The position numbers and the translations under genes are program-made. This document shows, piece after piece, positions 5,491 through 62,354 of a stretch of DNA of 64,000 bases. The DNA lies in the NCBI GenBank assembly GCA_964016885.1, contig OZ024740.1, forward strand, positions 220,596,001-220,660,000. The letters run 5' to 3'. The stretch is from Eledone cirrhosa. Its lineage: Eukaryota. Within the stretch, counting starts at the first letter, position 1, and each line of letters opens with the position of its first letter. Under the pieces are notes generated by a model. That model was not told the DNA's origin. It worked only from the letters and a program-made list of their open reading frames with translations, and searched no databases.

Positions 5491-6912
5491 TCATCTCCTT
5501 CATCATGGCAATCCTCTTGTAGCTTCGTTGGATTGCCTCAAGCGCCGTGTTCCAGTTCTTTTAGTCTCTCCCCCGTAGCTCATCTTCTTCATCATGGCAA
5601 TCCTCTTGATGTAGTTTTGTTGGATCACCTCATACATACATCATCATCATCACCGTTTAACGTCCATTTTTTTATGCTAGTGTGGGTTAGATGAGTTGTC
5701 CTGTTGTGAGAAATGCCAGGTCAGGTGACCATGTCTTGCTCATTCAGAACTGATTTTGGTTAGGTTTCTACAGCTGGATGCTCTTCCTAACGCGAACCAC
5801 ATTTACTGTGAGTACTGGGTGCTTTTTGTCATGTCACCTATACAACTTTACAGGCTTCACTAGATGTATGCTTCAGCTTGTCCTCATGGGAGATGTATGG
5901 AAAAGTGGGGTGGAGTGGAGGTGGGGGTTGCATACTATATGTATGCTTCAGCTTGTGCCATCAACTTTGAGCACTCTGCACCTTTTTATACAGCTGTCAT
6001 CATTCATACTCATCACATGTCCATATGAATGCTATCTCCTTTACTGCACACACACACCACACACACACCACACACACACGCACTGCTTGTAGATTCTGCC
6101 CAATACCAACCAAAGTTCCCTGGGAAGCTGGTAACAGTATTCATGAGTGTGTGTGTGATATATATGTAAATTTAGTTACACTCTGTCACCACTGATTCTG
6201 TTTTTCACCATTATCATTTCTTTAATTCCTTAGGGAATTGTTTGACCAATTGTTGTTTAAATTTGTTTTTTCTTTCCCTAAGACTTAATTAAGTTTTGAC
6301 AATTATCAATTAAATTTTATTCAATATTTTATATTTAATACTTTTTAGACTTTATTTTGACTTTAAATAATTTTTAGACATTTAGACCTAAAAAGAATTT
6401 TAATTTGCTATTTTTGGTCAAAATAAGTTTTTTTCTGCCATTTCTCGGTCATTTTAAACTTTCAGACTTTTTAGCCAAAAATTACCCTAATAATACCATA
6501 GAGTGGAGAGTATATGGAGCCATGATAAAATTTACTCAGTACACTCTTTAAAATGGTTGGTGTTAGGAAGAGAATCTAGCTGTAGAAATCATACCAGAAT
6601 GGAATATATAAGAAAGACGAGATCCTTTTAGCTGTCCAGGACAACATTAAGCTCTGAATAAGTGCTGACCCAGGCTGTAATAATTTTGTCCAACCCACAC
6701 CAGCATGGAAAACATAAAATAATGATATGTTATACATATTTTGTCCATACAAAGCATAAACAAAATATATTAAAAACATAAAACAATGGATGAATGATGA
6801 CAATGATCACCTAGGTAGATTTGAATAATGCACATCACTTGTTCTAATTTTGATGTATTTGTGCAAAGATAAAATTATCCTTTTATTTTTATAATTTTTT
6901 TTTTCATCAGGT

Positions 6913-7649
6913 ATGCGTTCCAGTTACCGAATTCATCCTAGAGATGATATGGACAGACCCCTTGATTCCAGAATGATACAATCTACTTATAATATGTCAG
7001 AAAGTAAATATTTAGAAAAAGAGCGACCTAAACCATTATTTCAAAGGGATCACATGAAAGAAAAGTATACGTATCCTGTTAAATATCCACCAATGACAGT
7101 TAAAATCGTCAGGGACCCTGCTGAAGTGAGCTCCAACCTAGAAAAGGTATCTTTGAAAGTAGCTCTGAGAAAGATACAGAATTACTTATGTGATAAAGAA
7201 TTTACATTCAATACAGCCATTATGTGTCTTGATCAATCACTTCATGTTACACATTGCCCTTTCTTCTTGGATTACAGTGTGAGAAAAGGCTACGTTAAAG
7301 AGGGTGTCCTGAAATTTGGGAATTTAATCATTGGTTATGGAAAATCTCCTGATGAAGAAGAAACTCAAAAGCTGGCATACATTGATGCTTTGAGAGCCTT
7401 AAAATTTAAGTCAGTTGAAGAAATCCTGAATAGAAATGAAATCAATGAACCAACATCACCACCACCAAGAACACCACCACCACTTGCATTACCAGTGAGA
7501 GAAAAAACTTTGTCCGAACTTATTATCATAGAAAAAGATGAGTTTGCAGTAGATCGTTTCAAATATTCAGTTTCTATACTTCACAACAGTGTGTTAGCTA
7601 ATAAGATGCACATAAAGTGGGATTATAATCCTGGACCAACTGGATGCAA
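6913..7649 (+). CDS. NKRF-like: Exon 1 (first visible coding exon) of divergent NKRF-like dsRBD/R3H protein
   Basis: Polypyrimidine tract and AG at 6909-6910, ATG 6913, GT donor at 7650 (phase 2). Encodes one dsRBD-like fold (AIMCLDQS...GNLIIGYGKS...QKLAYIDALRAL) and the start of a second (LIIIE...SVSILHNSVLANKMHIKWDY), resembling NKRF NAIGILNNSASFNKMSIEY. An upstream coding exon cannot be excluded. Confidence 0.8.
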
Positions 7650-9445: not shown

Positions 9446-9572
9446 GGTGAATGTATATATACAAGATAAACGTGTTGGAACTGGAGAAGGAACTGGAAGA
9501 CCGGAAGCTAAGAAAAATGCTGCTTGTGATGCACTTTTCAACTTTTTTTATAAGAATTGTGTCATCCTTCAG
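9446..9572 (+). CDS. NKRF-like: Exon 2 of NKRF-like gene (completes second dsRBD-like fold)
   Basis: AG 9444-9445, GT 9573-9574; phase matches exon 1 (AA+G = Lys); encodes VNVYIQDKRVGTGEGTGRPEAKKNAACDAL, the dsRBD GxG..KxxAxxxAAxxAL pattern. Confidence 0.85.
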
Positions 9573-13393: not shown

Positions 13394-15129
13394 CCCTTCT
13401 GTTAAGATGCGTGGCTTGGTGATTAGAGAGTTGGATTCACAATTATTAGGTTGTAAGTTTGATTCTTGAACCAGGTGATGCATTGTGTCCTTGAGCAAGA
13501 CATCTTACCTTATTTCACGTTACTCAACTATAGAAATGAGTTGTGATGTCACTGGTGCCAAGTTGTATTGGCCTTCACCTTTCTTTTCAACAACATAAGT
13601 GGCATGGAGACGGAAGGCGGATATGCATGGGCGATTTGCCAGGGCTTATACCTTGGGGGGGAACTTTCTAGGTACAAAACCTTTGGTCATTTGTGACTGA
13701 AGGGAGTCTTCTGCAACACTTCTGTTACTAACCACGTCATAACTGGCTCTAGTTCTATGAAACAAAGTCACACATTTTAAAGCCTTTAAAATGTGTGACT
13801 TTGGGTAAATAGTCTTTATATTAAAATGCCCCTACATAAATTTATATAAGAACCATATGCCAAGTTATCTTAGTAATGAAATAATCGTTTTAATAAATCC
13901 ATTAATTGAAATTGTGTATTTCATTAGAAATATGGATAATTCATTGTATATTGAATATTCTGTCTTGATGCATATATGAAAGAACACAATTTTTGGTGTG
14001 TCCCCTGACATGGTTGTTGTGGATATGTATAGCTGAAGTGGACATAATTTTCGAAAAAAAAAAAAACAAATAAAACTTTACATTGGCTAGCAGTAGATGT
14101 TTCCTGGGAATCTTTTAATTGATGAATCTTTATTGGTTTAAGTTCTATTTCTGCCAAGGTCAGCTGCGTCTTTTGGGGTCGGTGGAATCATTTGAATACT
14201 GGATAAGCTGCCATGAGGTACTTGTTCCAGCTCTTTGCATTCTGAGTTCATATTTTGTTGCAGGCTACTTGGCTGGAAGACTTAATCCATCACTGGCTTA
14301 ATGCAACCACCTGGCACCTTGGATGTTTTTAGCAGTACACACTCTGTCCAAAAGCATTTGGACCAAGTCTCTAGTTTGAGATACTTACCCCCCTTCCTCT
14401 TATCAGTTAAAGGCCCCAAGGATCAGTGGTACTACCCTTCCTTTCTTGACTAAACACTAAAAAACAAACAGAAATCAAATAATATATAATTCTTGTATTT
14501 TTCTCCAGTGAAATATTGACTACCATTTCTTAATGAAATCTTTGCTGTGTGTATTAGGTTCAGTATAGGTATACCATATTTCTACATGTCATAAGAAGCA
14601 GTTAAAGGGTTTGGCATCAGGAAGGGTATTCTGTTACAAAATATTACCTGAAAAAGTACCCCATGATGAGCATAAAACTTTTCATGGGATCCGCAAGGCT
14701 ATAGCCTGCTTTAGCAAGGAAAGAAGGCCTTAAAACATTGCATTTCTTAATGAGTGTTTCAAGAAATGCCATATCAACATTTTAGTGCTTTCTTGATACA
14801 GGTATGTCTTTTGTCTTATTTTTTTCCACAAGAATGTATTTAATATTTCAGTTACAGAAATATTGTATAGCTGAGCTCTTGCCAAAACTAAGGCAATTGT
14901 GAATGAGACTATGTAAGTCCTTGAACTCTTGTGTTTTCTTATGTAAAACTCATAAAATTAACTATTCTATCTATAATGTTTAAAATGGTTGGGCAGATCA
15001 TGAAGAAACTGTTATTTATCTTAATTGAAACAGCCACAATATAAAGGAATGATGTGTGTATGTAAGTGTCTACTGATTTGCCTATCCATAGCAACATTCC
15101 TCCACATGTAGTGCTACCCTCTATCACTT

Positions 15130-16185
15130 CCATGTGATGCACTTGTATTTAGAGGGTTTTGAGGCCTCTCCTAAACGTGCAATTGATACTCGACCAGGTG
15201 CAGGTCATCCTTAAGGCAGATGCTCTTATCCTTGGGTCACTGATCTTCCCCCCCAGCCATCCGAATGGCCCTTGCATCCAAGCTTCATCAGCTTGAAATT
15301 CTCACGAACAGACTGCATCTGATTAATGCTCTCTTCCTTTTGAGGAACTGCCTTCACATCCCAAAGATTTTGTATACCTTTCGCAGTGCCCTTTGTTACA
15401 GCAGCCATGCAACATCTGGTTTGATGGCACTTGATAGCAACAAGCCATCTTTATCATTAGATACAATGGCTTTGGTCTTCAGTTCTCGGTTTCATTCACA
15501 TTGGCATATCTTATGTACTGGTTTCCTGTTGTGCCCTTATGAACAAGGTTCTCCACAACAGATCAAAGCCTACTATAATACTTGGGGCAGCTTACTTGGC
15601 CAGAATTCTGTGGATATTGAATTTCCCAGCTGGACAGTGACTTGCCTTTGTATTGGTGTTTCCCTGAAGTTCTGTCTCTGGATCAGTGAGCTAATGCTGT
15701 TGAGGGTCCACGGTCTTTCCTCATTTTCATACTGCGTCAGTGCTGGTCACTTAAGACACACCACTGTCGATGAGTCTGTTAAACATGGTTTAGACATAGC
15801 TGGCTTCTCATTACAGTTTGAACAAGTGTGGTTAGACTGAGTGGACAGCAAAAGACAATCTTCCTGGTCTGCAGTGATAAGCTCCTAATCTGGGATGTGA
15901 CATGCAGTGATTCGTTCTTCTGCAGCAAAGTTGTGAATTCAGCGGGATACTCAGGTTTTGTTGTCTGGCAAGCTGGGTATTGCAAGTTGTTGAAGTATTG
16001 TCTTTCCAATAGCTGGAAACGTCTGGCATCCTGGGCACCCAAACAAAGTTCCTACTTACTGTGATCCGGACAAAGTTGGCCACCTGCAAGAATGAGCCAC
16101 TCAAACTGGACTGGCTGTTTTAGAGGATCTAATCTTTCTTGCTATCCTCCGGGTAATGCCTTAACAATTCTGTCAGCTGTGACAG
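15130..16185 (+). mobile_element. CRE-like non-LTR retrotransposon fragment (RT end plus restriction-like endonuclease), decayed
   Basis: ALFLLRNCL.IPK.LY, HGLS..C.SAG..RH, LIWDVTC.D, LET.G.LG and GNA..IL motifs across frames. Confidence 0.7.
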
Positions 16186-16515
16186 CATCCAGCTGCAGAA
16201 ACCATGCCAAATATGAAATGCATGAGCAAGATGAGGTCTCTTACCCATTTAGTCTCAGACTTCGACAGCCTGTCCAACCCTTACCAGCATGGAAATCAGA
16301 CATAAAATGATGGTGAGAAATCATCACACTAAATTTTCCTTTTGGAGCATGTGGAGAATTGTTTCCATAGATAGTCAACTTGATAGGCACACAAAAAATT
16401 TCTCTAATCAATATTGGAGAAAGTGCCAACCCCCTCCTGAAAAACCTCTTGATTCATGCCTACTTATGTGTGCGTGTATTACATATATATTTTATATATT
16501 TTTTTTATACATCAG

Positions 16516-17508
16516 ATTGCTTCAGATGTTGAAAGTAATATCATGATTCCTTACACGAATGTGATGTATTTTGTTAATGAAGTTAAAAGAAGAAAAATAT
16601 CTTATCCCAAGGATATTCCTGCCCGTAATGGTCCTTTTGCTATTGTAATAGAAAACCTGCTCGACTCCTACACATGGACTGCGGTGAATAACCAACTTGT
16701 ATTTGGCCCTGGGATAGTTGATGACGAGGCTGAAACTCTTAGAATTATTGGTGAGAGAAGAAACTTAATTGTTCGGAAAAAGAAATACAATGATGGCTTT
16801 ATCTACTGTTTACGTAGTGTGAAAGATTTTAGTGAAATCATAAAATATCTTCATGAGAATGGTGGAGCTAGTGGTAGATATCGCCTTGTTCCAAAATCAG
16901 AGATACCTGAGTTAAAAGCTATAAGACAGCAATATTATCAACAATATAGAATGTCTAGTCAAATAAAGGTAGATGAGAATGAAAGGCCAGGTTCTTATGG
17001 AAATATTGGTGATTCCAGCACAAACATGAATCAAGATTCTTATGATTTTCAAGGAGGTTATAACTATTCTGACAATAATAGAGAATATGACTCCAACTTT
17101 GTCAATCCTCCAAATTTTCCCCAGTCAAACATTAATTTGGAAGAACCTCAACAGATTCCAAATGTTGATAATACTCAATACATGAATTCAAATTCTAGTT
17201 ATTACGATAGGAACTATGCTTCAAATCCTTATGAAAGAGAAACAAATGTTCATAATCAGATGAACTCTGATGTAAATATGAATCGTAATGAAGGACCAAT
17301 GTATTCTTATAATCAAAGACCTGCACTAGGGGAAGAAGATAGATATAATTCTATGAATAACCAAGGTAATTCTTATCCGGCACAAAGTGGTTTTAATCAG
17401 AGGTCTTATGATTCAGATTATAACCCAACAGGAGACACAAATACTTATTCGGGATATTACGGAAACAATTTTGATTCAACAACTGGTAACAATAATGAAG
17501 GTTTTTCT

Positions 17509-17539
<31 letters not shown>

Positions 17540-18792
17540 GCAATAATAATAATAGAGCTTCGTGTTCTACTGGGTCTTATGAGAATTATCATTCAAGAGC
17601 TGTTTATGAATATGATAATGTTCATAAAACTGACTTTAATTCGTCGTCAATGTATAATTCTCGTGATACCACTGCTGCACCAAAAGAGCAAACTGGTTAT
17701 AATCAGGATTATTGTGCAAGAAACCCAGTTCAGAATTATGGCCAGGAATATCCCTATTCAACTGGTCAACACAACACACCTTATATGTATGAACAAGGAA
17801 ATCAAATGAACAAAAGAGAAGAAATGTTTGATAATAGAAATTCTCATCCAATGTCTGGAAGAGAATTCAACGACAACTCTGGCTTTCAAAATAAACTGAT
17901 GGGACAAAACCAACGTCCTGATTCATCTTTTAACCAAATTGGTAATCAAAATAGTAGTAGTTTTAAGGTAAAAAGGCCCGGTTTAGGACGTATGTTTGGT
18001 AATGCCAAAGCAAAAGCTTACGAAAAAGAATTGAAAATCAGAAAAGTTGCAATAAATATTGGTAACAATAGATCTAGAGGGAAATCTTCAAAACGTTGGA
18101 CAACATCAACTAATAGCAAAGTCTCTGGAAATGCATCTACATCTGCAGCACAATATCGCAGCATGCGAAGTTTGGCAGCCAAAGTAAATGCTAGAGCTTC
18201 ATCAAAGAATTTGACCCCTCTTATGAGTATGGAACAAACAACAAACAACAACCAAGTAATGCTTCTAAAATTGCTTACCAAGAAAATTGCTCAGAGAGCT
18301 TTACAAAGCAATGTCAAAAACATAATTGCAAATGCAACACGGTTATCGAATATTGCTAAGTCACGTCAACTAATGGAACGGTCTACAGCTCAGCTGCTTT
18401 CTGTTCCTAAGAAAAGAACCAGAAGGTCAAAACGCAAACCTGATGTAGCTAAAACTCCAAACAGTGGAACAGCCAAGCAAACTCCAAGAAGCGGTACAGC
18501 TAAGCAAACTCCAAGAAGCGGTACAGCCCAACAAACTCCAAGAAGCGGTACAGCCCAGCAAACTCCAAGAAGCGGTACAGCCAAGCAAACTCCCAAAAGC
18601 GGTACAGCCAAGCAAACTCCCAAAAACGGAACAGCCAAGCAAACTCCAAAAACTGGTACAGCCAAGCAAACTCCAAAAATTGGTATAGCCAAACAAACTC
18701 CAAAAAGCGGAACAGTCAAGCAAACTCCAAACACAACAAAAAACACAAAAGTCAAGGGAGCATATTTACCCCTACAAAAATTGAAGAAATAA
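16516..18792 (+). CDS. NKRF-like: Terminal exon A of NKRF-like gene: R3H-like domain, N/Y-rich low-complexity region, basic tail with TP repeats
   Basis: AG 16514-16515, phase 0 matching exon 2; 758-aa open frame; IENLLDSY..LVFGPGI.DDE..L..IG and IIKYLHENGGASGRYRLVP resemble the NKRF R3H domain and C-terminus. Confidence 0.8.
18454..18729 (+). repeat. Coding 27-bp minisatellite, 10 units encoding TP(R/K)SGTA(K/Q)Q
   Basis: Direct reading: actccaagaagcggtacagccaagcaa and variants, in frame in exon A. Confidence 0.97.
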
Positions 18793-18831
18793 TTTAATTC
18801 CTCTTTCAAATGTTCCTGTATTCAATATTTC

Positions 18832-18837
18832 AATAAA
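18832..18837 (+). terminator. Candidate polyadenylation signal AATAAA of terminal exon A
   Basis: AATAAA about 40 nt after the stop, T-rich downstream, conserved in copy B. Confidence 0.6.
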
Positions 18838-19226
18838 TGTTCATGTCTTAAAAAGTATCTCATTTTTGTCAACTTCTTAACACTTCGAACCTGCTGGCCC
18901 AGTACTCAGTTCTGCTGCACACTTCTGTTAATTAGTTGACACCACTTTCTGCATGAGTCAGTGACCATAATACATCATTTCTTTAGACTGTGTTCTTAGG
19001 AATACATTGTCGTGATGTTTTTCAAGTTTCTACATTTATCCTTGTTACAATTGAATTATCAAATAGCAGTTTATGTTGATTTTCGTGTGGACAGCCAGTG
19101 TTGAGGACTGCAAACACAGCAAGGAGTCTGGGTTTAAGGGGTTTAAGTTTATTGTTTGGCTGTTCTATTTTCCTTTACAAGGGAGAAACTGATACTGCAA
19201 TATTTTTACTCTCTCCTCACAGTAAA

Positions 19227-19264
<38 letters not shown>

Positions 19265-19275
19265 AATTATTTTTC

Positions 19276-21555
19276 TTTGCCCACTTATTCCAGAGTGGAT
19301 TGTGGGGGCTGTATCATCAAAGTCTCCTTCCAGCAGGTACTGTCAGAAACAACTGATCTGGCTGGATTCCCAGGCAAGACAAGCTGCATTAATGGATGTT
19401 ATCCAACCATCTTGCTCGGGATCCACCACTGGGTCTCTTGCTGGTTGATTCTTTCCTGATACATTCTAAGCACATGCCCATAGTATCTCTCAATTCAGAG
19501 AAGTAGCGGCACTATCCGGAGCGGTTCTAATCTCCAAGCTATGCACTCTATTGAGTAACGTTACTCCAAAGACCCTTCGGAGGAACCCCGTTTCGGTCGC
19601 TTATATTCGCGATCGTATTCTTTCAGTCATTACCCAATTGAAGAAAGCGAGTTTGGCTTTTTCATCTACCTCCCTTCTTCTGATCACCAAATGCTGAAGC
19701 TGGTGCATTACTGCACCAGCTGCTGCAATTCTTGCACTTAATTCAGCCTCCTGCCTTCCGTCACTTGTGATATTTGAATTTCTCCACCTGCTTCACAGGA
19801 ACTCCATTCACATGTAGATGCTGTTGTGATTGAGTTTAGGAGATAAGCAAAGTATTTCCTCCACCTGGGAGGATGCACCTCTCTGAAGAGAGGAGACCCC
19901 AATTCCTGATGGCAGGTTTGGAGGAGGACTTATTACAAAGTCGGCGGATTATCTGCCAGAACATTTTATTTGCTTAATCCCAAAGTTCTCCCATGTGTTA
20001 ACTTTGGATGCCTTTACTGTCTCTGCTGCAATTCTTCGTGTCTGCCTGTACCACAAGTGCTAGGAGACTTATTTTCAAGCCAAGTTTTGTGGGCTTCCTT
20101 CTTTGTTTGGATGGCATCTTTGACCTCTTGATTGAACTAAGGGGTACTCCTGCCATCTGGAGCCACACCAAGCCTCTTTCGCTCACAGCATTTAATAGCT
20201 GAAGCAGAAACTGAACAATATTCTCAGTTTGCTCAGGGAGTTCTCTGAATTTGGATGCAATAGTATCTGCATACCTGGTCCTGACTTCCTTATCCACCAA
20301 AGCTTCCCTCTTTATCCAATAGTCTGCCCTGGACCTGCCAGATTTGTGGGTTTCTTTGTGGGCTGTGGGCTTTAGGTGGTCTCAAGTTACAGATAACTAG
20401 ATGGTGATCAGTTGACAGCTCAGCCCCTCTCTTAACATGAACATTCAGCACAGAATCGAAGAGATCAGAGACAATAACCAAATCAATTATTGATTTCTGT
20501 CCCTGATTCCCCTTATACCATATATATTTATGGATGTCTCTGTGCTCTGTCCATAATAGAGTCCATTGCTAGAAGAGAAGTCTAATAAGGCCCCTCCATT
20601 CATATTTTGATTGGGATTGCCATTCCTTCCAATAACTCTTTTCCATGTCATTTAGTCGGTGTCAACATGTGCATTGAAGTCTCCCATTAAGATATATGAC
20701 TCTGTCTTAACTACATCTAACGCTGCAATGACTTCATCCTCCACTCATTACTGCTCCTTACCTGTAAGGATTGTGGTGTTCCAAGTTTCAATTGTTATAG
20801 TTTTCTCCTTCCGAACCCTCTTTGTGCATCCATCCCATGCCTTCTGGGACATGTTGCAGGCCCTTCCCCAGTTTTTACTGCATGAAATGGAGATAGCAAT
20901 ATATTTTTTAAACAGGCTCTTCTAATCTAAGGCCTGAACATAACCCTTGTTAACCTGCGTGAAAGACAATGTGGTATGGTTCTTTTTTGTTCCTCTCACT
21001 ATATTGCAATTTTGGTGGTCTTATTTTGAACCAGTCACTAATCTGGTACTTTCTCAAACCCATGAAGTCTAGGCTATTTTAGAGGCGGCCTTTACTTGCC
21101 TCATAACTACATCACTGGGTTGTGAGAACTTTCTTGAAAGCTACAGATGTCACCCATTGTTCCATCTCCCCAAATAGTTTTACTGCTATTGGTTCGGGAT
21201 TGCTTATTCATCCAGCAGCTGCCTCGTTATATTGCGAGTAACCATTATATCTGGTGGCCGTATCGCTATCCGCCACCTGCAACCCGTTTTCTAGCAGAAC
21301 AGCTTGCAGGTTTGAGATAGTACCAGATTGGTTACTGGTGCGAATAAGACCACCAAAACTGCAATATGGTGAGAGGTAAGAAAAAGTACCATACTGCATC
21401 GTCCTTCACACAGGTTTTACAAGGGACACATTAGGTAGAAGGGCCTGTTCGAAAAATATTGCACTCTCCATTTCATGACGTAAAAACTGGTGAAGGACCT
21501 GCGACCTGTCTTGGGAGGCATGGGATAGATGCACCAAGATTGCATATCCTGAGAA
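19276..21555 (-). mobile_element. RTE LINE (family 2), internally deleted, with 5' region and 12-bp TSD
   Basis: APE motif VKRGAELSTDHHLV; TAATTATTTTTC repeated at 19264-19275 and 21556-21567; the site is empty in duplication copy B (about 33175-33190). Confidence 0.88.
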
Positions 21556-22574
21556 TAATTATTTTTCAATATTTAATTTCATTTCAAATTCAGCATTTAA
21601 TGCCTCTATATTTGCAGAGAGACAAAATCTGGCCTTAAAGTGAAGTTAATAAACACTAAAGACCTAGTAAATGGAAAAGATGGCAGGATTCCGTCAGAAA
21701 AATGGCCGTGCTTAATATGTAAAAAAGGAGCGGGTAAAAATTCCATATAGTGTACAAAATGTAAGCTATGGATACACGAGATATAGAAGAATCTCTGGGA
21801 GGTTAGCAAATAATGTAGACTTTGTATGTGGCCGAGCTTACATAAAACTGGTTCTATCAAAGGTTCAGATAGTTCCGTAGAAATGTGTTGACAATATACA
21901 ACCAGAAGCAACTAACTTTCTTCAAGACTGCCTTCAGACTCAACACTTCCTCTCTTACAGTGGGATGACCCCCACACTGTCCCTGACAAGCAGCATGTAG
22001 ATAGTCCTCTCTTATCTTGCAGCTCACTCCCATCACTGCCTAGCCAATGACACAATGAGCACCCTAGTGTTGGAATGAGGTAGTGCCATGATAAAAAGCA
22101 CCCAGTCCACTCTGTAAAGTGGTAGTGCTGGTGCCACTATGAAAAGCATTCAGTACGTGCTATAAAGTGTTTGGTGTTTGGGAAGGACATCCAGCTATAG
22201 AGATTAAGCAAAAAACAGAACCTACATGTAAGACATGGTTACCTGACTAGTCTAGCCCTATTAGGTAACAACCCGTCTAATCCATGGAAGGATGGGAAAT
22301 AGACATTAAATGTGAAGGTGTATGGCTTAGTGATTAGGGTGTTTGGCTTATTAGCATAAAGTTGTGAATTTAGGCCCCAAATTGAACGATGCATTTTGTC
22401 CTTGAGTGGGATGCTTTACTTCCCATTGTTCCAGTCCAGCCAGATGGCAAAAACGAGTTTTACCTGGAACAAATACTATGAAGCATTTGAGGATCTGAGT
22501 CTTTTCATTTGCTGCCCCTGTGTGTGTGTGTTTGTGTGTGATATCGTTTAAGGTAATCCATGTTCTTTACTCTT

Positions 22575-22910
22575 TTCATTTTTCATTTTACGTCCGCTTT
22601 TTCCCTGCTTGCAAGGGTGGGACGGGAACTGATTCTGGCTTGATTTCTACAGCTGGATGCCCTTCCTAAACACCAACCTCATTTACAGTGAGTGCTGGGT
22701 GCTTTTTTGCCGTGGCACCTCCACGACCACTTTGCAGTGGAATGATAGGGACCGCAGTCCCTATCATCTCATTTCTACAGCTGAGTAAACTGGAGCAATG
22801 TGAAATAAAGTGTCTTGCTCAAGGAAACAACACATCACCCAGTCTGAGAATTGAACTCACAACCTTTCGATTGCAAGGCCAATGCTCTAACCACTAAGCC
22901 ATGTGCCTCC
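22575..22910 (-). mobile_element. tRNA-headed SINE with RTE-derived tail
   Basis: Head with A box TGGCTTAGTGG and B box GAGTTCAATTC, CORE-like ccttgagcaagacacttt, tail matching the RTE 3' UTR at about 62470-62630; near-identical inverted copy at 49979-50313. Confidence 0.85.
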
Positions 22911-22970
22911 ATTTTTTCACTATATATATATATTTTATGGAAAAGTGGACATAAAAATGATGATATATAT

Positions 22971-23009
<39 letters not shown>

Positions 23010-25337
23010 ATTGTATATTGAACAATATACAGGTTATTTATGAAAAACGTCCCATATATTATTCAATATACAATGCGTACATATATGTCTATAATGCTAT
23101 GTTGGAGCACCAATATACATTTTATGTGTGTGTATTAATGCATGTATTATGCAATGTGTTTCTGCTTGGTTGTCTTTCAAGTCCTCCACAAGCCATTGGT
23201 CAATGATAAACTAAGGACTTTTGCTCATGGCAATACAATAGAATTGAACCTAGAAACATGACTGTAGAAGGATTTCTTAACAACACAGCCATGTTTGCAT
23301 TTGTGTATAGTATTTTATTTTCACAATTTGTTTGTTAGCTGTTGAGGGCAGTGGCTATAGATATAGTTGCTGTTTAATTCAAACATCTATAGGTCCATGT
23401 GCAGGAAAAATTTGGTTGGGGAATTAAAAGAATTGTGAATATTATTTGAGCTTTTTTTAGAGGGCCTGTAACTGATGAGGGCTAAAGTTTTTTTTATATC
23501 CAGTTTTTAGAAGAGGTATACCATATTCCTGCATGTCATAAGAGGTACTTAAATGGGTTGGCACCAGGAAGGATATGCAGCTGAAAAACAATGTCTCAAA
23601 CCATCTTGTCATAACTCACGCCAGCATGAAAAAGTGGACATAAATACAACAATGATGACGAAGAAAGAGGAATGTTAGATTTTAAGATGTAATTTTTGCC
23701 ATATCATGAATTAGAGATTGCCAAGAAGGATCATGAGGAGAGAAATTTCAGTTGATTGTTGATATGTCTTAGATTAGTGTAGATTTTGCTGGCTTTCTAT
23801 GAAGTTGCATCTCAATAGGTTTCTTGTGTGTTTGAACGACAGGGACCCCCATCCCTATCAGATCAGTTTTTTTTTTACTCCCAATAAACTCTGAATGCAC
23901 TCAGCTGGAACAGATATCACTTTAACAATTCCGCCAATCCACCCTTCTGGACTGGTACGTTATTTATTCGCCCTGCAAAGTTGACTCCAGTGTAATTTGA
24001 GTTTGGAGTTAAGAGAGCAGGAACAAATACCACAAGGCATTTAATTTGATGCTCTAATGGATCAGCCAGATCATTACCTTAAAAGAAGGGGATGGTTTGT
24101 GTGATAGGTCAGTTGTTGGTAGAGTCAGGGAGAGAAGTAGCCCATCTTTGGCTTGTTCATGTATGTAATCATGAGACTTGTGGAATGGAAGAAATATTTT
24201 GGAGCTATCTTGTTTTGTGTGTATATTGTAGAGTTGGAAACAAAACAGTAAATATGGAAGTCTTCTCCACAGGAGTACTGCTTATTGAACCATCTTGATT
24301 AAGGAGTGGATGGTTAGGAGAGGTGGAATCTGTAAAGTTGGTACAGATCTTGGCAGGGAACTAGAAGTGTTGGCGGCAATTTGCGAGTCAGTAGGACTTA
24401 CTGTGTAATATGCAAAGACATCTTGGGTTGCGGCAGTTAAAAAAGTTGCCTAGTTTGTGGAAGATGAGGGTGTTTTGCTTTTGTTGTAGTACAGCTGCAT
24501 ATATTATCCAAGTGTCTTAATCTCTAGTTGGCATTTAACCCTTTTTATCCCTATGTCTCATCATCATCATCATCAGCATTATTTAAAGTCTGTTTTCTCT
24601 GCTCTCTTCCATCATAATTTTCTGTAAGACCTTTTTTTAAATTAGGTTCCAAACATTTAATAATAAGAAAGCTAGTTATATTACTAAATTCCTTCAAGTT
24701 TTTTTTTCATTATTTTCACAATTAATTGAAATATAGGCAGTGTATTTCATTAGAAAGATGGCAACAAAAGGGATAATGAAAGAAGACATACAAAATATTT
24801 TAGATAGATGTCCTGCAACTCTAACCCTTTTGTTAACCATATTTCTAATGAAAAACAGTGCCTATGATTTTCAAATAATTTCTGAAATAATCTAGAATTG
24901 AGTGGGATTTATAACTGACTTTCTCATTATTAAGCTGGTGTTTGAAGCATAACTTAACAAAAGTTCTTATATAAATTTATGATGGAACGTTTTCAGTTAA
25001 ATATAAACACTTTAAAACAAACAGTTTTGTATTTTAGAAGCTGAGGCAGTTTCAGGTGGGTTGGTATTAAAACAACTTAAAAATAAGTACTGATACTGTA
25101 CAGCAATATACAAATGATAAAGTTGTCTCTGCAAACCAGATATGATAACTGAATAAAGTATTTGTAAAAAAATGTACTGTTTTGTTAAATATCTTATTCA
25201 TGAAATGCTAACTTTGTGTTAAAATATATATTTGCTTAATTCTACATAGAAGTTGTAATATGAATGAATGATAAAAAGATTTTACCAGTTTATCTTTAGT
25301 GATTTATTAGAAATTACCATTACCAGTACCTGTGCTG

Positions 25338-25712
25338 GTGACACAAGAAAAAGAGTACCCAGTCCACCCTGTAAGGTGGTCATGTTGGTGATACAACAAA
25401 AAGTGGCCAGTTCACCATATAAGGTGGTTGTGCCAGTGACACAACAAAAAGCACCTAGACCACTCTGTAAGGTGGTTGTGCTGATGACACGACAAAAAGC
25501 ACCCAGTCCACTCTGTAAGGCAATCACGTTTGTGACAACAAAAAGCAGCCAGTGCACCATATAAGGTGGTCGTGTTGGTGACAACAAAAAGCACCCAGTC
25601 TACCTTGTAAGGTGATCGTGCTGGTGACAACAAAAAGTGCACAGTCCACCCTGTAAGGTGATCATACTGGTGACAAAATAAAAAAAATCACCCAGTCCAC
25701 TCTGTAATGTGG
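25338..25712 (+). repeat. About 47-bp minisatellite (about 8 units) in an RTE-type 3' UTR
   Basis: Unit like gtgacaacaaaaagcacccagtccaccctgtaaggtggtcgtgttg, followed by the conserved tail ggttggtgttaggaagggcatccag and (GAT)n. Confidence 0.9.
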
Positions 25713-27109
25713 TTGGTGTTAGGAAGGGCATCCAGCCGTAGAAACCAAGCCAAAATATATGTCCATATGAGCAAGACGTCACCTAACCTGACGTGTCTCA
25801 TATTGTGACAATCCGTCTAACCCATGCAGATGTGGAAAAATTGACATTAAACGATGATGATGATGATGATGTGGAAATTCAACTATTGTTTTGAAAACTA
25901 TATGGTTGTTTGAAGTATATAGAGAACCATGAAATATATAAATTCTTTTGAAATTGTATTTTTACTAAAGCATTTGATTCTTGTGTAAGATACATCATGT
26001 CTAGTTGTACCTGTGGAAATTCCGCTATTATTTTGAAGTTTTTAAAGAACCATGAAATACATAATTTCTTTCCCTCTTTGTATATTCAAGGTGCAGTCTT
26101 AGGAAAGGTCATTGAAAACTATATACTTTGTTATATATCAGCTTATCCATAATTCTTACTATTTATTTGCCATCTTACTCACTATTCTTCCTACCATCGT
26201 ACCTATCATATGATTTTAGCTACCACCCACAGTCATATTCACCATCTTTCACAGAATGTACACCCCATCCTATCTCTTTACTTGCCACTCTACTCAGTAT
26301 AAATCCTTCTTCAACCCATAATTTTTAATTCTTCAACCAGTTCAGTTCTCTCTCTCTCTTTCCAACTTTTATGTGACAACTGGACCAATTAAGCATATAA
26401 TACAATTATTATATGCATTATTACATATGTTCATTTAATATCCTTAACTGTTGCTGATTTTTTTCTTTTCATTACTGAATGGTCTTCTTGCAAAATTTAT
26501 CTTTTGTGAATCATCAGATGAAAGATTTTAAACTATTTTGTACTATATGAAACTGCATTATCAAAGATATTCTTGAAAAAGTGTAAAACCGAACTAGGCC
26601 TGCATTACATGAAAAATGAAAGGTCTTACTCTAATTTTACAAATTTTCTCCAGTAGTAAAGATACTACAAACATTTGAATTAAACCTATTTTTAGATATT
26701 TTCTTCTAAATTTTTTAAATTGTGATTATAATTTTGAAAATGTATACCAAATATACATGTTTATTACAGGATGTTAAGAATTAACAAATGGTTGAATTTC
26801 TATTTAATTACAATATCAATAGATGAATGTTTAAGATATGTTGTATTTAATGTTGCAGTATAAATTTATTGAAAAGAAAAAGTGGAAATTTTATCAATAT
26901 TATCTAATTCTTATAAATTTATTTTAAATTAGGCTTTAGATAAACAATCCTTTCAATACACTTTTAAAAGTCTTGATAGGATAGCAATAGTATTTTAACA
27001 AATATTCTTTTTAATTCTTTGAGTGCCTAAAATACCTCTTTGACTTCTTACTTCTTGAGTGCCAAAGATCTACTGGTACATTATTATTTAGTTTGTGAAG
27101 CTCAAAGCC

Positions 27110-27965
27110 AAGCTCTGTAAGCATCTGATATACATGAGGTGTATCTAGGGGCGAAAATTAACCTCACAGAGGCTGGTACCAGAACAATTAAAGTGTTCAA
27201 ATGTGGCAAAGTCTCTGGTGAGGATGAAATTCATCTCGACATATTAAAACTCGTGAATTGAGAATATATGTTGTGGCTGTTTCATGTATGCCAGGTGGTC
27301 TGGATCTCTGGAAGGGCGCCAAGGCAATGGCAATTGGGAGTAATTATCCCAATTTTTAAAAGTGGAAACAAGAGATTCCTCTAATTATAGAAGAATCTCT
27401 TTGTCAAACCTCCTCCATAAAGTTTATGCTAAATGTCTTTCACCACTAACATAGCATAGCTGACCAAATATTCACTCTGCGGTAGGTCTTGGAAATATTG
27501 TCAAGCAGTATATGCTTGTTTTGTGGACATTGAAAAAACATACACCTACATGCCACAGGATTCGTTGTGGAAGGTTCTGCAGGAGTATGGGATAGATGGA
27601 CAGCTTCTCATTGCCTTGAAGTTCTTGTATGAATGCCTAGTATTTGCATTCGATAAATGGTTCTACATCAAAGCCATTCAATGTGGATACCTGCCAAGGT
27701 ACCCACTTCTGTTCATAATCTTTATGAATAGGATTGACATGTGCAACCAGACTTGTGGTGATATTAAAACCAGTAGGTGTAAGATCAGTCAACTGGCTTC
27801 TTTAGATGATGTGGTGCTATTGAACTTGTCAGATGATCTCCAACATGCACTGGATAGGTTTGTTGCATGACGAATGAAAATCAGTGGTGCGAAGGCCGAG
27901 ATATTCATCTTCTTGGGAATGCCTGTGCAGTGCACCTTGCATGTGAGTGGAGTTCAAGTATTTTA
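27110..27965 (+). mobile_element. RTE family 2 RT fragment
   Basis: FVDIEK.Y, LWKVLQEYGIDGQLL, PLLFIIFM, LAS.DD motifs with stops. Confidence 0.8.
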
Positions 27966-28729
27966 GCGGGAAGGCTTAATCCATCACTTGGTTTAACGCA
28001 ACCACCTGGCATTCGGATGTTTTTAGGAGAACACACATTGTTAAAATGCATTTGGACCAAGTTTCTAGTTTGAGGATACTTGCTTCCCTTCTTGACTAAA
28101 CACTAAAAAACAAACAGAAATCAAATAATATATAATTCCTGTACTTTTCTCCATTTAAATATTGACTACCATTTCTTAATGTCATGTCAAAAGAGGCAGC
28201 TAAAGAATTTGGTGCCAGAAAGGGCATTCTGCTGTAAAATAGCTGAAAAAGTACCCCATGATAAGCATGAAACTTTTCATGGGGTCCGCAAGGCTAAAGC
28301 TTGCTTTAGCAAGGAAAGAAGGCCTTAAAACATTGCATTTCTTAATGAGTGTCTCAAGAAATGTCATATCAACATTTTAGTGCATTCTTGATACAGGTAT
28401 GTTTTTTGTCTTATTTTTCTCCACAAGAATGTATTTGATATTTCAGTTACAGAAATACAGCTGAGCTCTTGCCAAAACTAAGGCAATTGGGAATGCTGTG
28501 TTTTCTTATGTAAGACTCATAAAATTAACTATTCTATCTATAATGTTTAAAATGGTTGGGCAGATCTTGAAGAAACTGTTATTTATCTTAATTGAAACAG
28601 CCACAATATATAGGAATGATGTGTGTATGTAAGTGTCTACTGATTTGCCTATCCATAGCAACATTCCTCCACATGTAGTGCTACCCTCTATCACTTCCAT
28701 GTGATGCACTTGTATTTAGAGGGTTTTGA

Positions 28730-29790
28730 GGCCTCTCCTAAACGTGCAATTGATACTGAACCAGGTGCAGGTCATCCTGAAGGCAGATGCTCTTATCCTT
28801 GTGTCACTGATCTTCCATCCGAATGGCCCTTGCATCCAAGCTTCATCAGCTTAAAACTCATGAACAGACTGCATCTGATTAATGCTCTCTTCCTTTTGAG
28901 GAACTGCCTCGCCATCCCAAAGTTTTTGTATACCTTTCACAGTGCCCTTTGTTACAGCAGCCATACACCTTGCCTCATTGATCTTGATATTTGCAACCAG
29001 TGTGGTGCAGAGGAAATATGCACATCTGGTTTGATGGCACTTGATAGCAACAAGCCATCTTTATCATTAGATACAATGGCTTTGGTCTTCAGTTCTCGGT
29101 TTCATTCACATTGGCATATCTTATGTCACTGGTTGTGCCCTTATGAACAAGGTTTTCCACAACACATCAGAGCCTACTATAATACTTGGGGCAGCTTACT
29201 TGGCCAGAATTCTGTGGATGTTGAATTTCCCAGCTGGAGAGTGACTTGCCTTTGTATTGGTGTTTCCCTGAAGTTCTGTCTCTGGATCAGTGAGCTAATA
29301 CTGTTGAGGGTCCATGGTCTTTCCTCATTTTCATACTGCGTCAGTGCTGGTCACTTATGACACACCACTGTCGATGAGTCTGTTAAACATGGTTTAGACA
29401 TAGCTGGCTTCTCATTACAGTTTGAACAAGTGTGGTTAGACTGAGTGGACAGCAAAAGACAATCTTCCTGGTCTGCAGTGATAAGCCCCTAATCTGGGAT
29501 GTGACATGCAGTGATTCGTTCTTCTGCAGCAAAGTTGTGAATTCAGTGGGAGACTCAGGTTTTGTTGTCTGGCAAGCTGGGTATTGCAAGTTGTTGAAGT
29601 ATCGTCTTTCCAATGGCTGGAAACTTCTGGCATCCTGGGCACCCAAACAAAGTTCCTACTTACTGTGATCAGGACAGTTGGCCACCTGCAAGAATGAGCC
29701 ACACAAACTGGACTGGCTGTTTTAGTGGATCTAATCTTTCTTGCTATCCTCCAGGTAATGCCTTTACAATTCTGTCTGCTGTGACTATGT
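28730..29790 (+). mobile_element. CRE-like non-LTR fragment, duplicate of 15130-16185
   Basis: Near-identical to the copy A fragment. Confidence 0.7.
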
Positions 29791-30457
29791 GGTAACAGCC
29801 TGTGGTTTTGCACTTTCAAGAGATAGAATGAGCAAACAAATGAGTATAACATCCTTTCATTGGTTGTTTTGTGCTGTTACCATTAGTCACTATATACATT
29901 CATACATACACTTGACAAACACAGGGTTATTAACTGTAACATGTTTATTAAAGTATAAACAACTCAATGTTACTGATGTTATATATCTTGTATTGAGTAA
30001 GATAAATAAAGCTGTATTGTTTGCCACACACAATAAAATGTACTTGGTACACTCTCTAAAGTGTTAGTGCTTGTGGCATAATAAAATACATCCAGAACAC
30101 TCTGTAAGGTTGTTGGCATTAAGAAGGGCATCCAACTACAGAAACCATGCCAAATATGGAATGTATGAGCAAGATGAGGTCTCTTACTCATTTAGTCTCA
30201 GACTTCGACAGCCTGTCCAATCCTTACCAGCATGGAAATCAGACATAAAATGATGGTGAGAAATCATCACACTAAATTTTCCTTTTGGAGCATGTGGAGA
30301 ATTGTTTCCATAGATAGTCAACTTGATAGGCACACAAAAAATTTCTCTAATCAATATTGGAGAAAGTGCCATCCCCCTCCTGAAAAACCTCTTGATTCAT
30401 GCCTACTTATGTGTGCGTGTATTATATATATATTTTATATATTTTTTTATACATCAG

Positions 30458-31864
30458 ATTGCTTCAGAAGTTGCAAGTGATATCATGATTCCTTACTCGA
30501 ATGTGATGTATCTTGTTGATGAAGTTAAAAGAAGAAAATTATCTTATCCGAAGGATGTTCCTGCTGGTAACGGTCCTTTTGTTACTGTAATAGAAAACTT
30601 GCTTGACAACTACTCATGGAGTGCTGTGAATAACGAACTTGTATTTGGGCCTGGAATAACTGTTGATCAGGCTGCAATCCTTAGAGTTATTGGTGAGAAG
30701 AGATACTTAGTTCTTCGGAAAAAGAAATACAAAAATGGATTTGTCTACTGTTTACGTACTGGTGAAATTTTTAGTGACATCGTAAAATATCTTCAAGAGA
30801 ATGGTGGAGCTAGTGGTAAATATCGCCTTGTTCCAAAATCAGAGGTACTTGAATTAAATGTTATGGAACAGAAATTATTTCAGGAGAATATCCAATTTTC
30901 TGGCCGTATAAAGGCAGATGTGAATGAAAGGCCAAGTTATGGAAATATTGGTGATTCTAGCACTAACAGGAATCAAGATTCTTATGAATTTCAAGGTTAC
31001 AACTATTCTGACAATAATAGAGAATATGACTCCAACTTTGTCAATCCTCCAAATTTTCCCAAGTCAAACATTAATTTGCAAGAACCTCAACAGATTCCAA
31101 ATGTTGATAATACTCAATACAAGAATTCAAATTCTAGTTATTACGATAGGAACTATGCTTCAAATCCTTATGAAAGAGAAACAAATGTTCGTAATCAGAT
31201 GAGCTCTGATGTAAATATGAATCGTAATGAAGGACCAATGTATTCTTATAATCAAAGACCTGCACTAGGTGAAGAAGGTAGATATAATTCTATGAATAAC
31301 CAAGGTAATTCTTATCCGGCACAAAGTGGTTTTAATCAGAGGTCTTATGATTCAGATTATAACCCAAAAGGAGACACAAATACTTATTCGGGGCATTACA
31401 GAAACAATTTTGATTCAACAACTGGTAAAAATATGGAAGGTTTTTCTCATAATAATAATAATAACAATAATAATAATAATAGAGCTTCGTGTTCTACTGG
31501 GTCTTATGAGAATTATCATTCAAGAGCTGTTTATGAATATGATAATGTTCATAAAACTGACTTTAATTCGTCGTCAATGTATAATTCTCGTGATACCACT
31601 GCTGCACCAAAAGAGCAAACTGGTTATAATCAGGATTATTGTGCAAGAAACCCAGTTCAGAATTATGGCCAGGAATATCCCTATTCAACTGGTCAACACA
31701 ACACACCTTATATGTATGAACAAGGAAATCAAATGAACAAAAGAGAAGAAATGTTTGATAATAGAAATTCTCATCCAATGTCTGGAAGAGAATTCAACGA
31801 CAACCCTGTCTTTCAAAATAAACTGATGGGACAAAACCAACGTCCTAATACATATTTTAACTAA
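30458..31864 (+). CDS. NKRF-like: Duplicated terminal exon B (candidate alternative last exon or partial paralog), 468 aa, truncated before the basic tail
   Basis: Same phase-0 acceptor context (AG 30456-30457); open frame with only in-frame indels versus exon A until a CAA>TAA stop at 31862-31864. Confidence 0.6.
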   Translation: MASEVASDIMIPYSNVMYLVDEVKRRKLSYPKDVPAGNGPFVTVIENLLDNYSWSAVNNELVFGPGITVDQAAILRVIGEKRYLVLRKKKYKNGFVYCLRTGEIFSDIVKYLQENGGASGKYRLVPKSEVLELNVMEQKLFQENIQFSGRIKADVNERPSYGNIGDSSTNRNQDSYEFQGYNYSDNNREYDSNFVNPPNFPKSNINLQEPQQIPNVDNTQYKNSNSSYYDRNYASNPYERETNVRNQMSSDVNMNRNEGPMYSYNQRPALGEEGRYNSMNNQGNSYPAQSGFNQRSYDSDYNPKGDTNTYSGHYRNNFDSTTGKNMEGFSHNNNNNNNNNNRASCSTGSYENYHSRAVYEYDNVHKTDFNSSSMYNSRDTTAAPKEQTGYNQDYCARNPVQNYGQEYPYSTGQHNTPYMYEQGNQMNKREEMFDNRNSHPMSGREFNDNPVFQNKLMGQNQRPNTYFN

Positions 31865-32480
31865 ATTGATAATAAAAATGTTAGTAGTAGTTTTAAGGTA
31901 AAAATACCTGATTTAGTACATATGTTTCGTAATGCCAAAAACAAGGAAAGCTTATGAAAAGGAATTGAAAATCAGAAACACTGCAATAAATATTGGTAAC
32001 AATAGATCTAGAGGGAAAACTTCTTTAAAAGTTGGACACCATCAACACTCTCTGGAAATGCATCTACATCTGCAGCACAATATCGCAGCATGCGAAGTTG
32101 ACAGCCAAAGTAAACGTTGGAGCTTCATCAAAGAATTTGACGCCTCTTATGAGTATCGATCAAGCAACAAACAACAACAAAGTAATGCTTCTAAACTTGC
32201 TTACCAAGAACATTGCTCAGAGAGCTTTACAAAGCAATGTCAAAAACATAATTGCAAATGCAACACAGTTATCGAATATTGCTAAGTCACGTCAACTAAT
32301 GGAATGGTTAACAGCTCAGCTGCTTTCTGTTCCTAGGAAAGGAACCAGAAGGTCAAAACACATCAGAAGTAGCTAAAACTGAAAAAGCTCCAAACAATGG
32401 AACAGCCAAGCAAATTCCAAACAACAAAAAACACCAAAATCTAGGGAGCAAATTTACTCCTACAAAAATTGAAGAAATAA
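31865..32480 (+). pseudogene. Decayed remnant of the basic C-terminal coding region of exon B
   Basis: Aligns by eye to 17938-18792 but with several frameshifts; holds only about one unit of the 27-bp repeat (about 32388-32422). Confidence 0.85.
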
Positions 32481-32519
32481 TTTAATTCCTCTTTCAAATG
32501 TTCCTGTATTCAATATTTC

Positions 32520-32525
32520 AATAAA
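32520..32525 (+). terminator. Candidate polyadenylation signal AATAAA of exon B
   Basis: Same context as 18832-18837. Confidence 0.5.
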
Positions 32526-32937
32526 TGTTCATGTCTTAAAAAGTATCTCATTTTTGTCAACTTCTTAACACTTCGAACCTGCTGGCCCAGTACTCAGTTC
32601 TGCTGCACACTTCTGTTAATAAGTTGACACCACTTTCTGCATGAGTCAGTGACCATAATACATCATTTCTTTAGACTGTGTTCCTCAGGAATACATTGTC
32701 GTGATGTTTTTCAAGTTTCTACATTTATCTTTGTTACAATTGAATTACGAAATACCATTTTATGTTGAGATTCTCGTGTGGACAGCCAGTGTTGAGGACT
32801 GCAAACATGGCAAGGATCTGGGTTTAAGGGGTTATAAGTTCATTGTTTGGCTGTTCTATTTTCCTTTACAAAGGAGAGAACTGATACAGCAATATTTTTT
32901 ACTCTCTTCTCACAGTAAACTAATATATATATATATA

Positions 32938-33126
32938 TAATAGGAAAAAGTATGACCTCGACGGCAGAGCTCAAGCCGTTTCAACGGGTAGTCCAGAAAT
33001 AGCCGTTGAAACGGCTTGAGCTCTGCCGTCGGGGTCATACTTTTTCCTATTACCCACTCTACTACCCTAAGTATTGAGTACTCTGATGTGTTATGGTCCA
33101 TCTGGTTCCTTACCACAACTCCTTCG

Positions 33127-33130
<4 letters not shown>
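32938..33130. repeat. Fold-back insertion with 50-bp inverted arms in a (TA)n tract
   Basis: Arms 32938-32987 and 33003-33052 with one mismatch; absent from duplication copy A. Confidence 0.85.
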
Positions 33131-33174
<44 letters not shown>

Positions 33175-34025
33175 TTGTAATTTATTTTTATTATTTCATT
33201 TCCAATTCTGCATTTAATGTCTCTATATTTGCAGAGAGACAAAATATGTCCTCAAAGTGAAGTTAACAAACACTGAAGTCCTAGTGAATAGAAAAGAATG
33301 CATGACACTGATTCTTTCAGGAAAATGTCGGTGCTTAATATGCAAAAAAGGAGTGGGTAAAAATTCCATATAGTGTACGAGATATAGTAGGATCTCTGGG
33401 AGGTTAGCAAATAATGTAGACTTTGTATGTGGCCAAGCTTACATGAAACTGGTTCTATCAAAGGTTTGGATAGTTCTGTAGAAATAGTTGACAATGTCTG
33501 TTACATTAATCAGTAGTGGGGGTGGATGCACTGGAAGTGCGATAGCTACAGTGCAAACCAAGGGGAACAAGTCCGAATGTTCCAATGGATGTGTAATAGC
33601 AATGTGCTTAAATTACGAAACAAGAGAAAAGCTATGTATGAGAGGAATTAGATGCAGCATACAAGAGAAGAATTTGCTGGTATGGACATGCAATGTACAT
33701 GGAGGTTGACAGCTGCATAAAGCAGTGCAGGTCATTCGAAGTCAAAAGAATGTGTAAAAGAGGAAAGCCTAGGAAAATTTGGGACGATGTGGTAAAGGCT
33801 GATAATAAGCAGCTGAATTTCACGAAAGAGATGACATAAGATCAAGTTGAACATATGGGCAAGATGTGGTCAACTGACCAGTCTAGCCCCATTATGTTAC
33901 AACCCATCTAAGATATGCAAGGATGGAAAATAGAAGTTAAACTGTGATGATTCAATATGTGTATATTTATAGATATAAAGGAAGTATGTTTGGAACACGG
34001 CAAGTGAAGTTTAGAATTGAAATAG

Positions 34026-62042: not shown

Positions 62043-62354
62043 TTTTTCCGTGGAGTTGAAAGCCCCTTCAGGTTGGTCCTTATTGCGATTACTTACTTTT
62101 CACAATAGGTAATGTTACTCTTCCAACAAATGCCCATTGATGAATTCAACCATTTTTTCATTTCAATGGACAGCCTTCCACATGCCCCAGGTTATTTCAT
62201 AATTCAATTAAACATGTAGTTTCTTACAGATTGCCTTCATGTCAACCGAACTGTCGTCTATGCTTTTTGTACCGATTCTTCAGCCATTCAGTCAATTAAA
62301 CAACATTCCAAACGATATTTCTATTTTTCTCTATTTTCACATTTTAATGACAGA

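Follow-up and report, generated by a model that had tools for sequence, protein, structure and literature searches.

The stretch of DNA analysed here, referred to below as the window, comprises 64,000 nt of the genome of the octopod Eledone cirrhosa (contig OZ024740.1, positions 220,596,001 to 220,660,000, of the 3.0-Gb assembly GCA_964016885.1), and all positions are window coordinates unless marked otherwise. It carries a gene whose last exon occurs in two tandem copies, here called exon A and exon B. Self-BLAST and alignments place a repeat of 14269-19246 in tandem at 27963-32939, the sole large non-transposon duplication in the window, and the two copies match again in further blocks of 3' flank (21556-21895 with 33178-33495, and 22218-22315 with 33849-33947) that lie past copy-specific insertions. 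The initial annotation had held that only part of the last intron, the terminal exon and the 3' flank were duplicated, and this is borne out: neither exon 6913-7649 nor exon 9446-9572 recurs in the window, and each has one match in the genome, whereas the last exon has exactly two. Because the upstream exons are single copy in both window and genome, a separate paralogous gene with upstream exons of its own is ruled out. What is found, homologous tandem 3' exons without duplicated upstream exons, is the arrangement of alternative last exons derived by tandem duplication.

Exon B retains, as first described, a phase-0 AG acceptor at 30458, 468 open codons up to a CAA>TAA change at 31862-31864, and an AATAAA at 32520; this last lies within a 162-nt stretch identical to copy A. 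The intron end preceding the last exon (16453-16515) is similar in an octopod record (residues 1-16), which suggests that the position of the intron and the sequence of its acceptor are conserved. With the ATG at 6913 as start, the spliced products would be 1046 amino acids (aa) with exon A and 756 aa with exon B. The first exon in the window, which had been taken for the first coding exon of the gene, is preceded by another coding exon, homologous to the Octopus N-terminus (E 4e-19) and located about 2.3 kb upstream of the window, which would add 58 codons and give 1104 aa (A) and 814 aa (B). The predicted 756-aa isoform thus stands for a start at 6913 and becomes 814 aa if the upstream exon is used. 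Octopus records include forms both with and without an N-terminal extension of this 58-aa type, and the 1046-aa and 756-aa forms may also exist beside the longer ones.

The duplication is real, and mis-assembled haplotypes, a possibility that the initial annotation proposed to check by read depth, are disfavoured. In the DNA run X1, contig depth is 10.2-10.4 in unique flank, 10-11.7 in A-specific and 13-14.6 in B-specific sequence, and 18-23 in stretches where A and B are merged. Haplotypes would show half depth; since each copy equals the unique flank and merged stretches double it, the depths fit two loci. A contig crosses the B breakpoint at 27963 in 4/4 sequencing runs examined. The runs come from one study and may include the source of the assembly, so that they check the assembly and are not an independent occurrence.

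Both last exons are almost certainly used in RNA. Four runs contain exon B and none is on record as RNA; X3 is judged RNA-like from its spliced contigs and its exon-limited depth, which is 80-340 over exon B bins versus 0-18 in most intron bins. When contigs were compared with window 30432-32800 at 80% likeness, 16 X3 records fitted, and two of these start at 30454 with the same 15 unaligned letters, which equal window 9554-9568 and precede a TCAG in which exon and intron alike end. Both X3 junction contigs therefore carry the end of the shared upstream exon (9554-9572), which bears out the proposed splice from 9572 to 30458. The B junction contig (592 nt, depth 80.2) has no differences from B over 30454-31030; the A junction contig (595 nt, depth 56.8) has A letters, with 51 differences from B over its aligned part. 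Among the pieces listed, X1 DNA contigs at the exon B acceptor, unlike these, continue into the intron. The junction geometry is as expected: with the first A/B difference at exon base 12, a 31-mer graph has to branch 19 nt ahead of the exon, and both contigs begin at that point; the 19-nt overlap with the upstream exon is below the 31-letter bridging threshold, and the junction is read from contig ends. Fifteen junction 31-mers, each with 1-3 B-diagnostic bases, were tested, and 0/15 are present in window DNA. Further downstream, the B stop region lies within an X3 contig with no differences (depth 199; A counterpart 107.6), and near the 3' end contig depth is 128 for B against 135 for A. Both forms are thus present in X3 at the same order of depth and well above intron level, although contig depth is no measure of expression and cannot rank the isoforms. 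The same donor is joined to either copy in this one RNA-like run, as seen in contigs only. Each copy has its own AATAAA, at 18832 and 32520, and X3 depth drops after about 32490, but identical untranslated regions (UTRs) and contigs cannot show the ends themselves.

The copies are not uniformly diverged but form a mosaic. Divergence between A and B is 11.7% at the 5' end of the unit and 2.8% in intron 14961-16515 (43/1534), rises to 14.8% over codons 1-158 (70/473; synonymous divergence, dS, 0.22, nonsynonymous divergence, dN, 0.18, dN/dS 0.84), falls to 4% over codons 159-345, and is followed by 325 nt without a difference. The post-stop tail of B stands at 8.2% (41/503), the 3' end and UTR at 3.7%, the outer flanks together at 12.2% (93/761), and the outer 3' blocks at 9.9% and 21%. 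Neither extreme is random: the longest identical run is 339 columns versus a maximum of 215 in 5000 permutations, and the densest 450-column window holds 70 differences versus a maximum of 51 in 2000 permutations. Non-random identical tracts thus occur together with a local divergence peak, the signature of a divergence island under gene conversion. The first coding stretch of the exon, which contains the R3H-like domain described below, is more diverged than the intron (p=3e-19) and the post-stop tail (p=0.001) and does not differ from the outer flanks (p=0.20). The outer flanks date the duplication; the domain matches them while its immediate neighbours are far younger, a pattern that conversion around a protected stretch produces (PMC3924837). 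Gene conversion appears from this pattern to have homogenised the copies outside the domain. Positive selection (dN/dS above 1) between the A and B domains was not seen.

The protein has its closest named homologues in Octopus vulgaris, O. sinensis, O. bimaculoides and Argonauta hians. Pfam finds the dsrm domain in the exons up to 9572 only below cut-off, and Atlas leads are under 0.9. In a model of the O. vulgaris orthologue (predicted local distance difference test, pLDDT, 69), two double-stranded RNA-binding domain (dsRBD) folds are recognised, like those of TRBP, R2D2, DGCR8 and ADAR2 (E down to 1e-6); dsRBDs are a feature shared with NKRF. The R3H-like reading made initially is supported by alignment to the NKRF of the same genome and by a predicted fold. 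The C-terminus of this canonical NKRF, which is encoded on C19 and has XTBD, dsrm, G-patch and R3H domains, aligns with the first 130 codons of A and B (pairwise E 1e-4 for A and 3e-8 for B), and a model of the exon B domain (pLDDT 67, predicted template modelling score 0.48) has the Smubp-2 R3H as top PDB match with probability 1.00 but E 0.015, its input alignment holding NKRF rows so that it is not independent. A profile of eight NKRF proteins gives colinear matches of 16.6 and 7.5 bits to the Argonauta orthologue (200 shuffles, maximum 4.2), while exon A itself stays below the pass level for that profile. Since full-length BLASTP of the orthologue against NKRF is not significant (E 0.30), homology of the gene to NKRF rests on domain-level comparisons. 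The R and H positions of the R-x3-H motif are replaced in A, B, Octopus and Argonauta, which give no Pfam R3H match; no XTBD is matched by Pfam in the window exons or three full Octopus orthologues, and no G-patch is recognisable in the window exons or Octopus orthologues. The gene product is, by its domain content, NKRF-derived and not an NKRF. An unbiased search with the orthologue returned 13 proteins, including a full NKRF and several proteins that have multiple dsRBDs but neither XTBD nor G-patch, so that the family is wider than the octopods. Eight of the recorded proteins (P0017-P0019, P0021-P0023, P0026 and P0027) are multi-dsRBD proteins of this kind that match the dsRBD and/or the R3H-like core, pointing to a wider NKRF-derived family. 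A homologue search with exon A residues 1-175 gave 0/330 candidates, a sensitivity miss, as other searches recovered the orthologues; a PDB sequence search gave two chance-level matches only, and an Atlas search with the A domain no usable match. Elsewhere in the genome, about 30 short frames (45-86 aa) over the Pfam R3H cut-off cluster on C15, C22, C23 and C25, often as near inverted pairs 8-10 kb apart, and are probably repeat-borne.

The two C-termini differ strongly. The last 290 residues of A have a net charge of +56, an isoelectric point (pI) of 12, a KR cluster and nine TP[KR] motifs, and the tail helix of A is 23-27/33 identical in five homologues; these features are probably localisation and kinase signals. 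The tail is encoded in part by a 27-nt tandem repeat of 10.4 copies (18452-18731), and shorter related Octopus repeats vary in number between species. The exon B product, as the initial annotation had it, is without basic tail features and has a pI of 5.8.

Part of the ortholog comparison that had been suggested could be made, in that A/B changes were polarised on octopod homologues; the Octopus and Argonauta records found give the long-tail form only and no B-type isoform. A and B group together (100/100) versus five octopod homologues (7 rows, none left out), and over the R3H-like domain values are 0.015-0.07 among Octopus-like rows, with branches of 0.24 for A and 0.13 for B. Polarised on O. 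vulgaris, the domain has 16 A-derived versus 7 B-derived changes (p=0.09; 14 unpolarisable), codons 131-160 have 0 versus 6 (p=0.03; 10 unpolarisable), and the post-stop tail has 4 versus 11 (16 unpolarisable); the contrast in polarity between domain and tail has p=0.019. Within the domain B looks the more ancestral copy (p=0.09); the tail of B is dead. The pre-stop indels between the copies are net +3, -3, -3 and -12, plus a compensated +1/-1 pair equally alignable as substitutions, and all frameshifts (net +4 at 31937-31944, +2 at 32024, -1 at 32097 and -2 at 32358) lie past the B stop, so that the claim of 468 in-frame codons with frameshifts only thereafter holds. For the claim that exon B is under selection, the indel argument is thin, as of the four pre-stop indels two polarise to A, one to B and one lies in an AAT microsatellite, and dN/dS is 0.84. 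Under neutrality, 468 codons would have stayed free of a stop with a probability of 0.16, which drops to 0.03 if every change fell on B.

Table 1. Features of the gene and its duplicated last exon (window coordinates unless marked).
Feature	Position	Strand	Remarks
Upstream coding exon	G000:C1:220593722-220593893 (contig coordinates)		58 codons including phase-1 join; homology to Octopus N-terminus
Shared coding exon	6911..7649	+	Acceptor at 6910, ATG at 6913; encodes the first dsRBD and the beginning of the second; fold from ortholog model; splicing predicted
Shared penultimate exon	9446..9572	+	End of second dsRBD; phase-0 donor serving both last exons; occurs once in genome
Duplicated intron part, copy A	14269..16515	+	9-15% from B at 5' end, 2.8% over 14961-16515
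Last exon A	16516..18792	+	758 codons: R3H-like domain (codons ~40-127), N/S/Y/G/Q-rich region, basic tail (conserved helix, ~10 nine-residue TP[KR] repeats)
Divergence island, A side	16516..16989	+	70/473 aligned sites differ from B; dS 0.22, dN 0.18
A/B identical tract, core	17551..17875	+	0/325 differences; longest run 339 columns; probable recent gene conversion
Conserved basic helix motif of tail	18244..18381	+	In 5/5 outside homologues compared; not encoded by isoform B
Exon A AATAAA	18832..18837	+	Predicted proximal poly(A) signal
LINE-like insertion	~19262-21555		Between exon A and its outer 3' flank
Outer 3' flank, copy A	21556..22315	+	Comprises two blocks that match B, at 9.9% and 21% divergence
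Duplicated intron part, copy B	27963..30457	+	Insertion of 341 nt found in B only; DNA and X3 contigs cross the 5' breakpoint
Last exon B, coding part	30458..31864	+	468 codons and TAA; spliced to 9572
Decayed frameshifted tail copy, putative 3' UTR of isoform B	31865..32545	+	Under B-specific X3 contigs; AATAAA at 32520; 3' end approximate
Outer 3' flank, copy B	33178..33947	+	Beyond palindromic MITE-like insertion near 32940-33050

We take the duplication, both junctions, the mosaic pattern of divergence and the dead tail of B as directly demonstrated. In the reading that we favour, and which we regard as probable though well short of secure, a tandem duplication gave the gene two alternative last exons and hence a long basic-tailed and a short acidic tail-less protein, and selection likely keeps the R3H-like domains different against conversion. 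Isoform A would arise from use of the proximal acceptor at 16516 together with the poly(A) signal at 18832; for isoform B, the polymerase would continue for 11.7 kb and 9572 would be joined to 30458 over a 20.9-kb intron containing the whole of exon A. Because the copies differ little or not at all in acceptor and poly(A) signal, the A/B split is most simply explained by competition, with A used part of the time and the rest going to B. The diverged first 470 nt would be the sole local place for copy-specific enhancers, and a search for competing RNA duplexes between the unique and the duplicated intron found none above chance (best 13-nt matches, E ~0.4). A stop codon in a last exon escapes junction-dependent nonsense-mediated decay (NMD), and as the B stop lies in the last exon, this pathway should miss the B transcript. 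Conversion would have repeatedly homogenised the intron, the low-complexity region and the 3' UTR but not codons 1-158, leaving a partition in which B keeps the more ancestral domain and drops the tail, while A keeps the tail and carries the more changed domain. The basic tail would most likely give A nuclear or nucleolar retention and phosphorylation control, and B, which shares both dsRBDs with A, would use them to bind double-stranded RNA in a different compartment or while less strongly retained. We likewise hold it to be somewhat better than an even proposition that B gives rise to a protein under selection whose domain is protected. A bolder version, to which we give only limited credence, is that a young duplication is partitioning the protein into two selected isoforms, with the distal exon retaining the ancestral R3H-like domain and losing the basic localisation tail, the proximal exon retaining that tail and evolving a new domain surface (e.g., the A-only changes at exon codons 101-109), conversion erasing all other differences, and the A:B ratio acting as a regulated nucleolar/non-nucleolar switch.

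Several points weigh against this selective interpretation. The dN/dS of 0.84 in the domain is compatible with relaxed evolution and does not prove selection; the A/B asymmetry of the domain alone is not significant (p=0.06-0.17 by outgroup), and codons 131-160 run the opposite way. In the permutation tests, sites count as independent. The number of conversion tracts is small, so that chance can account for an unconverted stretch of 470 nt, and divergence past about 10% blocks conversion by itself. B has lost a helix conserved in 5/5 homologues checked. Isoform B is known at the RNA level, from contigs rather than reads of one RNA-like run in one study, its library type not on record, and as the Octopus and Argonauta records found show only the long form, conservation across species does not back the switch.

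The explanation that survives best beside the favoured one is that B is spliced and stable but a neutral by-product, in which the copied acceptor and poly(A) signal catch read-through, the protein can be done without, and the island arose by chance as a gap between a few conversion tracts and has become self-maintaining. We consider this unlikely, yet deserving of serious weight. It draws on the same dN/dS, on a domain divergence equal to that of the outer flanks, on the neutral chance of 0.16 that no stop arose, on the single pre-stop indel that polarises to B and on the lost helix; but a decaying B should hold most of the derived changes, which is true in the tail (11 vs 4) and not in the domain (7 vs 16). 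Every frameshift falls after the stop, the dead tail, a stretch open to free A-to-B conversion, is less diverged than the domain, and B contig depth is of the same order as that of A. A role for B as an RNA-level attenuator, by which transcripts diverted to a tail-less, short-lived or inert protein set the dose of full-length A, is suggested by the anatomy, as each B transcript is one A transcript fewer and B stops before the conserved tail; it is improbable, as a sink needs neither 468 open codons nor an ancestral-like domain and B RNA is not scarce in X3. An artefact, whether mis-assembled haplotypes or a library chimera at the B junction, is very improbable: the long identical tracts, the single RNA-like run and the sub-threshold 19-nt overlap would allow it, but the per-copy DNA depth that doubles where merged, the breakpoint contig in 4/4 runs and the 15% divergence over the domain oppose it, and no other 5' unaligned end occurs at exon B in X3 among the matches listed, with little upstream intron cover, so that there is no other B transcript to switch from.

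Transposable elements were noted elsewhere in the window. Three copies of a long interspersed nuclear element (LINE) reverse transcriptase lie at 120-1889, 46245-48118 and 62682-63994 (RVT_1, E 6e-27), with a PHD-like cysteine motif after the reverse transcriptase domain (PHD E 1e-4, below cut-off). In a broken Helitron-like element at 57400-62100, one of the several frames matches the PIF1 helicase (Pfam E 1e-40), and frames upstream in it are presumably Rep-like. The insertion near the end of copy B, resembling a palindromic miniature inverted-repeat transposable element (MITE; 32940-33050), lies within a TA repeat, and its depth is very high in every run.

Duplicated alternative last exons are an established kind of gene structure, of which this pair is unusually young and large. 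C-terminal substitutions derived from tandem exon duplication make up 77/236 human events (PMC9741552, PMC8373072), and the Drosophila genes pipe and PGRP-LC are described with terminal exon clusters (PMC9013439). Like these, the octopod pair is made up of homologous 3' coding exons that arose by duplication; a shared donor is joined to one or the other, both have a poly(A) signal of their own, and the C-termini that they give are homologous. Such known cases are mostly ancient, with >90% shared with teleosts (PMC9741552), whereas in the octopod pair an outer-flank divergence of about 12% marks a young duplication, which encodes about two thirds of the protein, is still being homogenised and has one copy 290 codons shorter. 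Human red/green opsin exon 5 offers a divergence peak under gene conversion (PMC3924837), and for Dscam exon arrays no conversion was found (PMC3236188). As in the opsins, high divergence covers a coding stretch, putatively functional in the octopod gene, and low divergence the flanking intron, in tandem copies 14-24 kb apart; unlike the opsins, the octopod copies are alternative exons of one gene, and their conversion is read from the pattern alone. NKRF itself has XTBD, dsRBDs, G-patch and R3H and is a nucleolar XRN2/DHX15 cofactor (PMC10511037, PMC5435916). By comparison with NKRF as described there, the octopod protein shares a colinear last dsRBD and R3H-plus-C-terminal block, but is without XTBD or recognisable G-patch, has the R and H of the R3H motif replaced, and has gained a long N/S/Y-rich region and a basic tail. 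Literature searches in open PMC and bioRxiv listed no publication that deals with this gene or with conversion between alternative last exons; what appears to be new here, on the sequence comparison, is the mosaic divergence between the two last-exon copies.

As a class of gene structure, then, the locus is ordinary. Known duplicated terminal exons are mostly ancient and their early history is hidden, while the octopod pair is young and both copies are spliced. Its internal controls, namely the converted intron, the dead tail and the unconverted flanks, make it a testable case of an alternative exon pair escaping homogenisation, and of whether a new isoform is selected from the start. The gene also points to an unstudied family of NKRF-derived dsRBD proteins.

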